A stretch of DNA of 64,000 nucleotides from Acinetobacter phage Mokit. Of this stretch, positions 11,876 to 55,303 are shown piece after piece (within the stretch, counting starts at the first letter, position 1; each line of letters starts with the position of its first letter). The DNA lies in the sequence record MW388002.1; one strand, written 5' to 3'. Under the pieces are notes generated by a model. That model saw only the letters and a program-made list of their open reading frames with translations. It made no database searches and was not told the DNA's origin. The position numbers were made by a program, and so were the translations under genes.

Positions 11876-12112
11876 TTATGAATAAGTTTTTGTTGCAATA
11901 TAAAATTCTTGTTCAATTAATTTTTCGTTGAGGCGTCTGTATGCTTCATTACGATTCAAAAATTGAGATCGTTTATTTGAAACTTCGACAACTATGCCAG
12001 TAACGACATGAGTAACACGTACACCATTGTAAGGACGATTGATCCAATTACTTGCACCTTTAGCTCTAAATTCCTGAACAATTATTTCAGAAGGAGTAAA
12101 GACATAGTTCAT
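11876..12112 (-). CDS. hypothetical protein (~78 aa); start trimmed to MNYVFTPSE
   Basis: The ORF-track N-terminus overlaps the tRNA at 12132-12208. The internal ATG at 12110-12112 has a GAGGA RBS. Confidence 0.35.
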   Translation of the reverse strand: MNYVFTPSEIIVQEFRAKGASNWINRPYNGVRVTHVVTGIVVEVSNKRSQFLNRNEAYRRLNEKLIEQEFYIATKTYS

Positions 12113-12680: not shown

Positions 12681-12755
12681 TGGTCATCGATCGGAGATTC
12701 GAACTCCGGCACCCAGATTTAGAGTCTGTTGGTCTAACCGCTAACCTAATCGACG
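12681..12755 (-). tRNA. tRNA with CUA anticodon (amber-suppressor-type)
   Basis: Hand fold of the reverse complement: acceptor CGTCGAT/ATCGATG with A73 and CCA; D arm GGTT-AGCGGTTA-GACC; anticodon stem (A)CAGA/TCTG(G) with 7-nt loop CTCTAAA (U33, anticodon C34-U35-A36, A37); 4-nt variable loop; T arm CGGAG-TTCGAAT-CTCCG. CUA pairs with UAG. Confidence 0.5.
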
Positions 12756-15488: not shown

Positions 15489-15554
15489 AATTACGCCTGT
15501 TTAAAAAATGATCATCTAAATTTATATTGCAAGTGCTATCTAAAAAGTTGATGT

Positions 15555-15624
15555 TATAATGGTTCTACCGGTTCACCGCTCTAAATTTATCTATTTGGTC
15601 GGAGAAGATAGAGTTTCAGATGAT
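15555..15624 (+). repeat. inverted-repeat copy A (~70 bp, promoter-like cassette) between genes 3 and 2
   Basis: TATAATGGTTCTACCGGTTCACCGCTCTAAATTTATCTATTTGGTCGGAGAAGATAGAGTTTCAGATGAT; partner at 55171-55239 in inverted orientation. Confidence 0.8.
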
Positions 15625-15682
15625 ATATCTGCATTGAAAATATAGAATATTGTGCTGCGCACAATGATGCGCAGCATCTAAT

Positions 15683-53860: not shown

Positions 53861-54130
53861 TTAGTAATTTTCATCACAGTCCTCACACATTTTGCGTTCG
53901 GCGATTGGATTATATACACGAACTTCAATACGTTTCCAACAATCACAATCTTCGCAATGAAAAATATGATCTTCTAACATATCAGTGAAATTTACCGAAT
54001 GCTTTAAGTCTGCATCAAGTCCTAATGACTCAAGTGTCTTAACTAGGGTATTGCCCCAAGTTTCTTCCATGCCATCTAACATATCAGCAAGTTCTTCAAA
54101 TTGGTCATCGGTAGGCATATCAAATTTCAT
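53861..54130 (-). CDS. small Cys-rich acidic protein in the position of T4 uvsY.-2
   Basis: HCEDCDCW...CEDCD cysteine pairs at the C-terminus. Confidence 0.4.
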   Translation of the reverse strand: MKFDMPTDDQFEELADMLDGMEETWGNTLVKTLESLGLDADLKHSVNFTDMLEDHIFHCEDCDCWKRIEVRVYNPIAERKMCEDCDENY

Positions 54131-54392
54131 AAGGTTTGCTCCAGAATGTTAGAATTTTGCCACATAGCTCGTCGTCACCTAAACTAAAGATGACTGAACA
54201 AATTTTATCATGATCTTCCTCATCAAAATATGCCAATAATTTAATCATTGACTCCTTTGTACCATCGGAAAATACTAAACATTTTCCAGCTTTATTACGC
54301 AAAGTAATTTCTTGGCACCAGTTATGTACTTCAAGTTTAAGTATGCCATGGTTTGTGTTGAGTGTCAATGCAGCTGTAGGTATAGTAAGCAT
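54120..54392 (-). CDS. hypothetical protein (90 aa)
   Basis: ORF track; translationally coupled to its neighbours. Confidence 0.4.
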   Translation of the reverse strand: MLTIPTAALTLNTNHGILKLEVHNWCQEITLRNKAGKCLVFSDGTKESMIKLLAYFDEEDHDKICSVIFSLGDDELCGKILTFWSKPYEI

Positions 54393-54715
54393 TACTTGTA
54401 CTCCTTTTCATCAACATAAAATTCAATGTATTTTTCGGTATCCTTGGAACTTGCGTATGCTATTACAACACCACGTTCAAAATCAAAATCTTTGACCAAT
54501 AAGCGCTCATGCCATGGATCAATAGCCCAACCAAATGGAAATTTGCGGTATGGGCAAACGTAATGTACGTTACATTCTTCAACACCATTGAATTTTAGCC
54601 CAGGCGAACCTACAAATTGAACTACCCAACGTTCAGATGCATTACGTACCGATGGTACGTCGCATGTCAATTTTGTTGTTTCAGCGCGAAATGAAGTAAT
54701 TTTACGGTTGCTCAT
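54392..54715 (-). CDS. hypothetical protein (107 aa)
   Basis: ORF track. Confidence 0.4.
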   Translation of the reverse strand: MSNRKITSFRAETTKLTCDVPSVRNASERWVVQFVGSPGLKFNGVEECNVHYVCPYRKFPFGWAIDPWHERLLVKDFDFERGVVIAYASSKDTEKYIEFYVDEKEYK

Positions 54716-54759
54716 AATATTTTACTCATAATTATTAAGATAGAAGCATTATATACCAC

Positions 54760-54787
54760 AAAAGGACCATAGTAAATAGTCCTTTTG
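54760..54787. terminator. hairpin AAAAGGACCATAGTAAATAGTCCTTTT
   Basis: 7-bp stem with flanking A and T runs. Confidence 0.45.
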
Positions 54788-54961
54788 TAGTTATTTTAGC
54801 TTTTTATCAGTGTATTTGCAACAAGGTACAAAATGAGAAATGTAGACACCTTGATCATGACAAGGACAACCACATTTCTTAATAATCTCATTCTGCTGTG
54901 CTGTTAGCACAGGTTTCCCAATTTTAAAAATCTTTCCAATCAACTTTACTAGCTTCATAGC

Positions 54962-55126
54962 AATAACTCAGTCTCTAGCAAAATGTCATCATTAGATTCC
55001 AAAACAGGTAAATCTTGAATGTGCTGCAAGCAGTGTCCAGGATGGACAGGTCCTTGATCAGTTTCAACTACCAGTGCTTCATCAATCGGCATCTTACATA
55101 CCGAACAAATACGTGTTTCCATTATT
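54962..55126 (-). CDS. small zinc-ribbon protein (~54 aa)
   Basis: METRICSVCKMPIDEALVVETDQGPVHPGHC... with GGAGAATAATA RBS. Below the ORF-track size cutoff. Lies just downstream of the repeat-borne promoter-like element at 55171-55239. Confidence 0.3.
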
Positions 55127-55170
55127 ATTCTCCTATATCGTATATATATTTATAGACTCTATACATCTAA

Positions 55171-55239
55171 ATCATCAGAAACTCTATCTTCTCCGACCAA
55201 ATAGATAAATTTAGAGCGGTGAACCGTAGAACCATTATA
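55171..55239 (-). repeat. inverted-repeat copy B of the 15555-15624 element, carrying a MotA-box/-10 middle-promoter-like arrangement on the minus strand
   Basis: Reverse complement of 55171-55239 matches copy A apart from one single-base indel and one substitution. On the minus strand, TGCTTTA (complement of 55254-55260) lies 14 nt from TATAAT (complement of 55234-55239), reading toward the small genes at 54962-55126 and the uvsW-adjacent cluster. Confidence 0.75.
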
Positions 55240-55303
55240 CCATACAAATTTTGTAAAGCATTTTATGCTTATAAATAAGGCGATTTATATGATCAAATTT
55301 TAA

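Follow-up and report, generated by a model that had tools for sequence, protein, structure and literature searches.

A five-copy family of promoter and non-coding leader cassettes in Acinetobacter phage Mokit and its relatives, tentatively read as replication origins

An inverted pair of short repeats in a 64,000-nucleotide stretch of the genome of Acinetobacter phage Mokit (MW388002.1; this whole stretch is called the window below), which had been described in an earlier note, represents two members of a family of five dispersed cassettes composed of a promoter and a non-coding leader. We found no description of such a family in the accessible literature. We put forward, as a tentative proposal from sequence comparison, that the five copies may be the transcript-primed replication origins of this phage group, resembling oriF of phage T4.

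Both repeats of the pair, copy A (15555-15624, plus strand) and copy B (55171-55239, minus strand), are present in the window, copy A between gp3 and gp2 and copy B between gp25 and a series of small genes. From TATAAT to GATGAT, copy A differs from the reverse complement of copy B by only one indel (CTACCGG/CTACGG) and one substitution (TTTCAG/TTTCTG). While the core pair is as described, its extent had been set too short at about 70 bp, as the similarity continues beyond it for about 25 nucleotides (nt) on the upstream side and about 20 nt on the downstream side. A repeat search in the window yielded the arms 15569-15644/55151-55226 (76 nt, 88%) and 15531-15568/55226-55263 (38 nt, 76%), and a weaker upstream similarity extends to a common AT-rich block containing TGATCAT. 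The core 35-mer was found at exactly two sites of the window when up to three mismatches were allowed, compared to none expected from 100 shuffles. The suggested promoter character is also supported, since both copies contain a perfect extended -10 element, an AT-rich upstream block and a MotA-box-like element, TGCTATC (15534-15540) and TGCTTTA (55260-55254), respectively, each 14 nt upstream of TATAAT. A sigma-70 promoter scan detected no -35 element for either copy. Copy B is indeed positioned for transcribing the minus-strand small genes.

A BLAST search with the element, as proposed in the earlier note, revealed five to six matching places in each of about 50 related phage genomes. The window is collinear with the complete genome of Acinetobacter phage Melin (MW388003.1; Straboviridae, Twarogvirinae, Hadassahvirus), showing 99.6% identity with 260 differences over 64 kb, with its first position at Melin 64382. 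Melin carries the core TATAATGGTTCTACCGGTTCACCGCTCTAAATTTATCTATTTGGTCGGAGAAG at five places, three of them outside the window:

Melin 14305, plus strand: copy in the srd gap
Melin 48402, minus strand: copy between the halves of the split DNA polymerase gene, with a truncated core of which only the first ~23 nt are shared
Melin 79936, plus strand: copy in the gp3/gp2 gap (copy A)
Melin 119620, minus strand: copy between gp25 and uvsY.-2 (copy B)
Melin 151618, minus strand: copy in the gp34/rnh gap

A sixth match at Melin 34364 consists only of the promoter and the start site, immediately followed by a ribosome-binding site (RBS). As copies A and B are two of five dispersed copies, the idea that the pair specifically brackets the late gene block has to be abandoned. 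The same five loci are occupied in the same orientations in phage Lazarus (Lazarusvirus), whose flanking genes are about 82% identical to those of Melin, and in phage AB1I1M-1, which represents a third lineage (AB1I1; 85% amino acid identity of gp25).

The copies in the srd and gp3/gp2 gaps are antisense to all neighbouring genes, contain no open reading frame (ORF) and are terminated after about 120–140 nt, which argues that their purpose is not protein expression. At the rnh locus, the gene rnh has an ordinary MotA-box promoter of its own (TGCTTCA-N12-TACAAT; Melin 151529, minus strand) between the cassette and its start codon, so the cassette appears dispensable for rnh expression. The first gene after copy B codes for a DUF2685 protein homologous to UvsY.-2 (PF10886, E = 4e-23), and the next four small ORFs beyond it (window 53861-55122, minus strand) gave no Pfam match, indicating that a recognisable uvsY is absent at the position where T4 has uvsY after the oriF promoter. 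A UvsY between gp25 and the UvsY.-2 homologue was considered and rejected, as only DUF2685 among the five small ORFs matches Pfam.

The anatomy of the cassettes was derived from an alignment of 15 sequences from different copies and lineages, and the transcription starts given are predictions. In the window, copy A is composed of the following elements:

15500..15522, plus strand: AT-rich upstream block TTTAAAAAATGATCATCTAAATT, UP-element-like, at about -67 to -45
15534..15540, plus strand: MotA-box-like TGCTATC, 14 nt upstream of the -10 element
15552..15560, plus strand: extended -10 element TGTTATAAT
15567..15607, plus strand: core leader ACCGGTTCACCGCTCTAAATTTATCTATTTGGTCGGAGAAG, from the predicted +1 (A, 7 nt past the -10 element) to +41
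15608..15651, plus strand: AT-rich, locus-specific tail, which includes one GATG unit and, at 15620-15637, a mini-ORF of 5 codons
15652..15687, either strand: bidirectional terminator-like hairpin of 10 bp, 6 of them GC, with a T-tract on each strand; shuffled sequence would be expected to give 0.4 such sites

Copy B and its downstream gene are arranged on the minus strand:

55283..55303, minus strand: AT-rich upstream block TTAAAATTTGATCATATAAAT
55254..55260, minus strand: MotA-box-like TGCTTTA, 14 nt upstream of the -10 element and forming the 3' arm of a stem-loop AAGCAT-AAA-ATGCTT
55234..55242, minus strand: extended -10 element TGGTATAAT
55188..55227, minus strand: core leader from the predicted +1 to +40, lacking one C compared with copy A
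55123..55187, minus strand: tail leading into the downstream gene, with the rest of the purine box, a mini-ORF of two codons (ATG ATT TAG, 55175-55167) and the RBS of the next gene; no terminator
54955..55122, minus strand: gene for the DUF2685 protein (UvsY.-2 homologue), the first gene downstream of copy B

Throughout the alignment, the AT-rich block near -60 is conserved as AAAAWWTGATCAT in most copies and lineages, and the MotA-like box of most copies reads TGCTTTA (Melin and Lazarus) or TGCTGTA (AB1I1). The extended -10 element TGnTATAAT is nearly invariant, with TGT or TGG before TATAAT in all copies compared but one (the rnh copy of phage Kimel, GATGATATAAT). In several copies, but not in every one, the MotA-like box is overlapped by a stem-loop, either of the type GTAAAGCAC-N-GTGCTTTAC or AAGCAT-AAA-ATGCTT. 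The core leader generally starts with a C-rich segment of about 16 nt, followed by an AU stretch and a purine box GGAGAAGAUAGAG; copy A conforms to this plan, its core leader having a C-rich start and an AU stretch and reaching into the purine box GGAGAAGATAGAG (15601-15613). The core leader is identical in four Melin copies except for a 1-nt deletion in the gp25 copy. In related phages, the tails consist of one to five tandem AT-rich 9-nt units, (A)GATGNWTTN, and also carry one or two abutting perfect GC hairpins, with a bidirectional terminator at the srd and gp3/gp2 loci. The terminator-like hairpin behind copy A has a folding energy (dG) of -17.1, equal on both strands, and is predicted to end both the copy A RNA (~120 nt) and the gp2 transcript. 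Transcription from copy A had been envisaged to continue through genes 2 and 4 to gene 53; with this hairpin and its T-tract about 120 nt downstream, read-through would be needed to get there, which makes this unlikely.

These cassettes differ from the other promoters of the genome. About 35 ordinary early promoters show the pattern GTTTAC-N15-TGnTATAAT-aGTCaTATCAAATC, whereas the five cassettes lack the GTTTAC -35 element, and the other MotA-box candidates in the genome have 12–13-nt spacers and unrelated leaders. The five cassettes are thus a promoter class of their own. The early promoters themselves share a consensus reaching into the transcript, GTTTAC-N15-TGnTATAAT-aGTCaTATCAAATCA...TGAGGAAATT-ATG (e.g., Melin 2604, 8997, 18377, 26167 and 138049, all on the minus strand). 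They represent a second and far larger family of promoter-leader cassettes, nearer to the concept of the PeSL repeats known from other T4-type phages (see below) than the five-copy family.

The copies of each lineage evolve as a set. All five Lazarus copies contain AATTATA where all five Melin copies have AAATTTA, and the AB1I1M-1 copies share the promoter with Melin but not the core, which reads ACCCCCTACCCTTCCAATATTATATTTACTGCCGGAAAAGAATAGG and is again uniform among the copies of this phage. The core is thus homogenised within each lineage. The ΔC variant of the core was found at one locus in Melin and in the window, but at three loci in phage AbTZA1 (97–98% identical), and the srd copy of Kimel holds the middle segment of the polymerase-locus copy. 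The spread of this variant and the transfer of this segment show that gene conversion among the copies is ongoing. Of the module shuffling considered in the earlier note, the part concerning recombination between copies is supported by these two cases, whereas shuffling of genes is not, since the five loci and their flanking genes are the same in the three lineages. No gene insertion, deletion or replacement marking a module was detected at the copies across the three lineages, only sequence conversion. Comparing Melin with Lazarus, the core differs by only two or three substitutions (about 3 of 52 nt) versus about 30% in the adjacent spacers, and conversion alone does not account for how well the core is conserved.

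The downstream module of tandem hairpins has the same architecture in Melin/Lazarus, AB1I1 and phage ZZ1 (Zedzedvirus), although the stem sequences are unrelated, and these stems are equally stable on both strands. The hairpins are perfect on either strand and show almost no G-U asymmetry. Between the srd copy (16149, plus strand) and the polymerase copy (47928, minus strand) of Lazarus, the loop of the second GC hairpin changes from TGT to its reverse complement ACA, while the stems are identical; this swap is what flipping of the loop in a palindromic DNA leaves behind.

A 24-mer of the element had no match in public metagenome contigs and a 22-mer had no exact match in 185,579 bacterial and archaeal genomes, and we therefore rejected host mimicry or a wider distribution. 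In IMG/VR, the element was found only in AbTZA1 and Kimel, and one unrelated contig contains the generic promoter alone. This viral contig (IMGVR_UViG_3300034777_000465, 10210-10563) carries two direct copies of TTGCAT-N-TGTTATAATGGTTCTACC 336 bp apart, followed by an RBS and an ORF, which suggests that the part comprising the -10 element and the start site is a generic strong promoter of other phages as well.

The placement of the copies on the genome points to a role beyond the individual loci. The gaps between the Melin copies are 34.1, 31.5, 39.7, 32.0 and 30.7 kb, and those in the other two lineages are similar. The probability of such near-equidistance is about 5e-5 under a uniform null and likewise when five of the 39 consensus-promoter sites are drawn, suggesting a DNA-level role at the genome scale. 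Minima of the cumulative GC skew at 81.5, 119.5 and 153.5 kb lie at points of transcription divergence and only 0.1–1.9 kb from three of the copies, a proximity which is confounded with the direction of transcription. In ZZ1, which belongs to a different genus, homologous units of a promoter and a leader with a GC-rich start are located in the srd gap (plus strand), the gp3/gp2 gap (plus strand), between gp25 and uvsY.-2 (minus strand) and at rnh/34 (minus strand). They belong to two sequence types which share modules with each other and with AB1I1. The fifth unit of ZZ1 is located at 60.4 kb beside the nrdC region, not in the polymerase region.

The resulting map can be compared with that of T4, which has at least five active origins (A, C, E, F and G) without a common motif (PMC3016281). 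At oriF and oriG, a MotA-dependent middle promoter is combined with a downstream unwinding element, and the transcript forms a persistent R-loop which primes replication (PMC3016281). Four of the T4 origins are placed as follows relative to the cassettes:

T4 115321, minus strand: oriF in the 25/uvsY gap, with the uvsY transcript as primer; same position and direction as copy B
T4 152947, minus strand: oriG inside gene 34, 2.1 kb from the rnh/34 gap and sharing its direction with the rnh/34 copy
T4 79355, minus strand: oriE inside gene 5; gene context and direction unlike those of the gp3/gp2 copy
T4 16763: oriA upstream of gene 56; gene context and direction unlike those of the srd copy

Copy B is the equivalent of T4 oriF in position and direction. 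The T4 oriF/PuvsY promoter, ATGCTTCA-N13-TGGTATAAT (a middle promoter with TGCTTCA-N13-TATAAT), is laid out like that of copy B, ATGCTTTA-N14-TGGTATAAT, and both motA and asiA are present in Melin. The ZZ1 units at 17.5, 60.4, 79.3, 117.9 and 149.6 kb follow T4 oriA, C, E, F and G at 16.8, ~59, 79.4, 115.3 and 152.9 kb, including the uneven spacing from A via C to E; the probability of this agreement is about 2e-5 against random placement and 0.017 if the phase alone is randomised. In Melin and Lazarus, four of the five copies match the T4 origin map.

A genome-wide role at the DNA level is suggested by the conservation of position, orientation and number across genera despite sequence turnover, by the antisense units without genes, by the regular spacing and by the equivalence of copy B to oriF. 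A core without a stable or conserved fold and hairpins that are perfect on both strands would fit a role of the DNA or of an RNA-DNA hybrid. Among known mechanisms, the transcript-primed origin of the T4 oriF type fits best, and we therefore consider it possible, while holding the proposal with clear reserve, that the five copies are such origins. Host RNA polymerase, later together with MotA/AsiA, would fire from the extended -10/MotA-box promoter, and the largely unstructured initial RNA with its C-rich start, AU stretch and purine box would stay on the template as an R-loop. After trimming, this RNA would prime leading-strand synthesis along the direction of transcription, while the region just downstream, with its AT-rich 9-nt repeats and perfect hairpins in tandem, may serve for unwinding, helicase loading or stopping. 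Recombination of the T4 type would hold the copies identical through gene conversion. The start sites, R-loop formation, priming and the roles of the downstream modules are what we infer from this arrangement. With still more caution, we suggest that Twarogvirinae may possess a sequence-defined multi-origin system, consisting of five promoter/primer-RNA cassettes about 33 kb apart on the circular map, whose core co-evolves as a set by gene conversion, possibly together with a cognate factor.

Several points weigh against the origin proposal. R-loop formation in T4 needs no specific sequence (PMC3016281), so neither conservation nor homogenisation of the core would be predicted. To explain them, one has to assume in addition a factor recognising the sequence, or selection acting together with gene conversion. 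The constrained core could mean that there is a sequence-specific step, for example one that involves a factor or the processing of the primer at the purine box. The segment from +1 to +16 has about 60% GC and does not look like an A+T-rich unwinding element; the segment from +17 to +30 and the tail of 9-nt repeats are AT-rich, but the genome as a whole has only 36% GC. No significant sequence similarity was detected between the leader of T4 oriF and the Acinetobacter leaders (p = 0.1–0.85), and homology via the motifs TCCAATA and GAATAG was discarded as being within chance. Gene-level synteny with T4 oriA and oriE is lacking, as context and direction differ. The near-equidistant spacing is one observation inherited by synteny rather than three independent ones, and the fifth unit of ZZ1 at 60.4 kb missed the range of 46–55 kb forecast from even spacing. 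The coordinate of T4 oriC used for the map is approximate (given as 'near rI.-1' in the review, with no feature in the record). Finally, we found no replication or transcript data for these phages in the literature.

A different explanation, which we regard as doubtful, is that the cassettes are genes or leaders of a multi-copy non-coding RNA, whose common 5' segment of about 41 nt acts as RNA. It may either be a trans-acting small RNA, produced from two stand-alone units of about 120–140 nt and released from three mRNA leaders, or a cis-acting leader which modifies RNA polymerase, RNA stability or translation. This would agree with the promoter-to-terminator units without ORF at the srd and gp3/gp2 loci, with an identical 5' segment and concerted evolution as typical of multi-copy RNA genes, with the architecture of two abutting hairpins kept in three genera with unrelated stems, and with the short ORFs after a Shine-Dalgarno-like purine box. 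However, only tRNAs reached the gathering score in a search of the window against Rfam 15, and nothing credible appeared around two copies at E values up to 10, so a known RNA family was rejected. The folding stability of entire transcripts is unremarkable (z -2.4 to +0.6), and the first ~50 nt showed no common or stable fold across the variants, only weak and inconsistent ones of -4.5 to -12.7 kcal/mol. A candidate covarying helix (CUCU/GGAG vs. UUCC/GGAA) for a conserved core fold failed across the variants. What would be the seed is swapped between lineages (ACCGGUUCACCGCUCU, ACCCCCUACCCUUCC and two more types in ZZ1). Searching the phage genomes for antisense targets, we found AT-rich 10–11-mers at chance frequency only, the raw counts being inflated by the opposite strands of the elements themselves, and the bacterial and archaeal genomes searched above provide no exact match either. 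The equal stability of the hairpins on both strands speaks against this explanation, which also leaves the near-equidistant spacing unaccounted for.

Peptides were considered as well. In copy A, an ATG in TATAATGG opens a frame of 29 codons, which is broken by the 1-nt deletion in copy B, and this indel rules out a conserved core peptide. Two-codon ORFs (AUG-NNN-stop) are enriched in the tails (about 4-fold), with 18 observed where shuffling gave 5.5±2.3. Several copies and all of the AB1I1 lineage lack them, however, and two-codon minigenes were therefore rejected as the core function. Some of them form tandem in-frame 9-nt units, AUG-NNN-UAG/UGA/UAA, coding for Met-Ile/Val/Phe-stop after a Shine-Dalgarno-like purine box, e.g., in the rnh copy of Lazarus (record position ~149180). 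A CRISPR-repeat-like or tRNA-like interpretation of GTTCACCGC... was dropped because the length and the absent stem do not fit.

We judge it unlikely that the family represents ordinary promoter cassettes of the PeSL kind, with or without an insulating terminator, which serve transcription only and owe their identity to passive recombination between repeats of at least 50 bp. PeSLs are defined by a sigma-70 promoter with -35 and -10 elements, an AT-rich upstream region, a stem-loop and a Shine-Dalgarno/ATG sequence; a genome contains about 50 of them, located mainly upstream of ORFans in its hyperplastic regions, and they mark indels between close relatives (PMC2839356). A promoter with an overlapping stem-loop (GTAAAGCAC...GTGCTTTAC) is found in several of our copies, gene conversion is demonstrably active, and the ~35 early promoters of the genome likewise share a leader consensus. 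Moreover, PeSL-like sequences have been reported from the g43A/g43B interval in other phages of the T4 type (PMC2839356), where one of our copies is located, and the ZZ1 hairpin GGGGCTTCGCCCC resembles the GGGG...CCCC stem of PeSLs. Against this stand the number of five rather than about 50 copies, the location at conserved junctions of core genes and not in hyperplastic regions, and two copies that face the wrong way without a downstream ORF. No linked insertion, deletion or replacement was found in the three lineages, the spacing is non-random, and passive conversion does not explain why the Melin/Lazarus core is far more conserved than the adjacent spacers.

That the A/B pair serves as a switch flipping the ~39.6-kb late block by homologous recombination, as also raised in the earlier note, is highly improbable: the inverted arms of ~70–114 bp would suffice for T4-type recombination (for which ~50 bp is cited as sufficient) and an exchange within the core would merely swap promoters and leave transcription units intact, but we found no fixed inverted isomer, as 41 records are collinear at copy A and 49 at copy B and three complete genomes share one arrangement (transient isomers being beyond the reach of sequence alone), and the pair is not special, since five copies in a + - + - - pattern would allow several inversions or deletions equally well.

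If the origin proposal is true, T4-type phages would have kept the positions of their origins even where gene context and sequence have changed. Of the at least five T4 origins, the mechanism is understood for oriF and oriG alone, and a review of T4 replication names the determinants of R-loop formation, and the use of R-loops at the remaining origins, as open questions (PMC3016281). All candidate origins of the present phages would be one short cassette, which would make these questions directly testable with four internal replicates, and the lineage-specific cores of Melin, AB1I1 and ZZ1 provide natural swap experiments. If the proposal is wrong, the family still shows, with unusual clarity, how dispersed non-coding elements of a virus evolve in concert.

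The repeats also have practical consequences, as they disrupt short-read assemblies of therapeutic Acinetobacter phages. Related records or contigs begin or finish exactly at repeat copies (OL763420.1 at position 1, OQ627712.1 at positions 1-94 and several ends of PP7989xx/PP7990xx records), indicating that the repeats break such assemblies and make the starts of records arbitrary. The same effect probably accounts for the '114 bp inverted terminal repeats' reported for the assembly of ZZ1 (PMC4177764). As a separate observation, the tRNA cluster of the window includes a tRNA with the anticodon CUA (12681-12755, minus strand), which is of the amber-suppressor type and was called tRNA-Pyl by ARAGORN. 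A nearby ORF of 78 amino acids (11876-12112, minus strand) is annotated in Melin as a peptide-chain-release-factor protein with an RF-1 domain, and many mini-ORFs in the repeat tails stop at UAG.

Among known systems, the PeSLs (Arbiol et al. 2010; Comeau et al. 2014) resemble the five-copy family in being promoter and stem-loop repeats of about 100 bp which recombine with one another, and one family copy lies in the plastic g43A/g43B region. Unlike PeSLs, our cassettes lack a sigma-70 -35 element, are present in five copies, are conserved mainly in the transcribed leader and are not associated with gene gain or loss. Their locations differ as well, with three copies at conserved core-gene junctions (gp3/gp2, gp25/uvsY.-2 and rnh/gp34) and two without a downstream ORF. 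On sequence grounds, we would not class the family as PeSL, as it has the stem-loop and the recombination between copies and lacks the other features, but it may partly act like one, namely as a recombining promoter cassette.

The nutL/nutR sites of phage lambda and putL/putR of HK022 are sites in the leader RNA just past early promoters, which occur in inverted orientation and act on the transcribing polymerase. They resemble the cassettes by a conserved sequence right after promoters and by several copies, including inverted ones. Both put and nut depend on defined RNA stem-loops, whereas the five-copy core has no conserved fold, and two of the copies are directly followed by efficient-looking terminators with nothing beyond to express. 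We identified no antiterminator partner for a nut- or put-type function. The bar minigenes of lambda read AUG AUA UAA/UGA, and many cassette tails contain similar two-codon ORFs (AUG AUA UAG, AUG AUA UGA or AUG UUU UAG), often as tandem 9-nt units after a Shine-Dalgarno-like purine box. Given their absence from several copies and the AB1I1 lineage, bar-like minigenes are not the common denominator of the family.

The origins of T4 remain the closest comparison for the proposed role of the cassettes as origins. Both oriF and oriG have a middle-type promoter followed by a non-coding or leader region, and the cassettes show the same order with a MotA-box-like element and an extended -10 element, although their spacer has 14 rather than 12–13 nt. 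In both cases, several sites per genome are located about 30–40 kb apart, and three of them lie near switches of transcription divergence and skew, namely oriE, oriF and oriG in T4, where the same confounding was noted (PMC3016281). Unlike the T4 origins without a common motif, the five cassettes share an identical transcribed core of ~41 nt that co-evolves among them.

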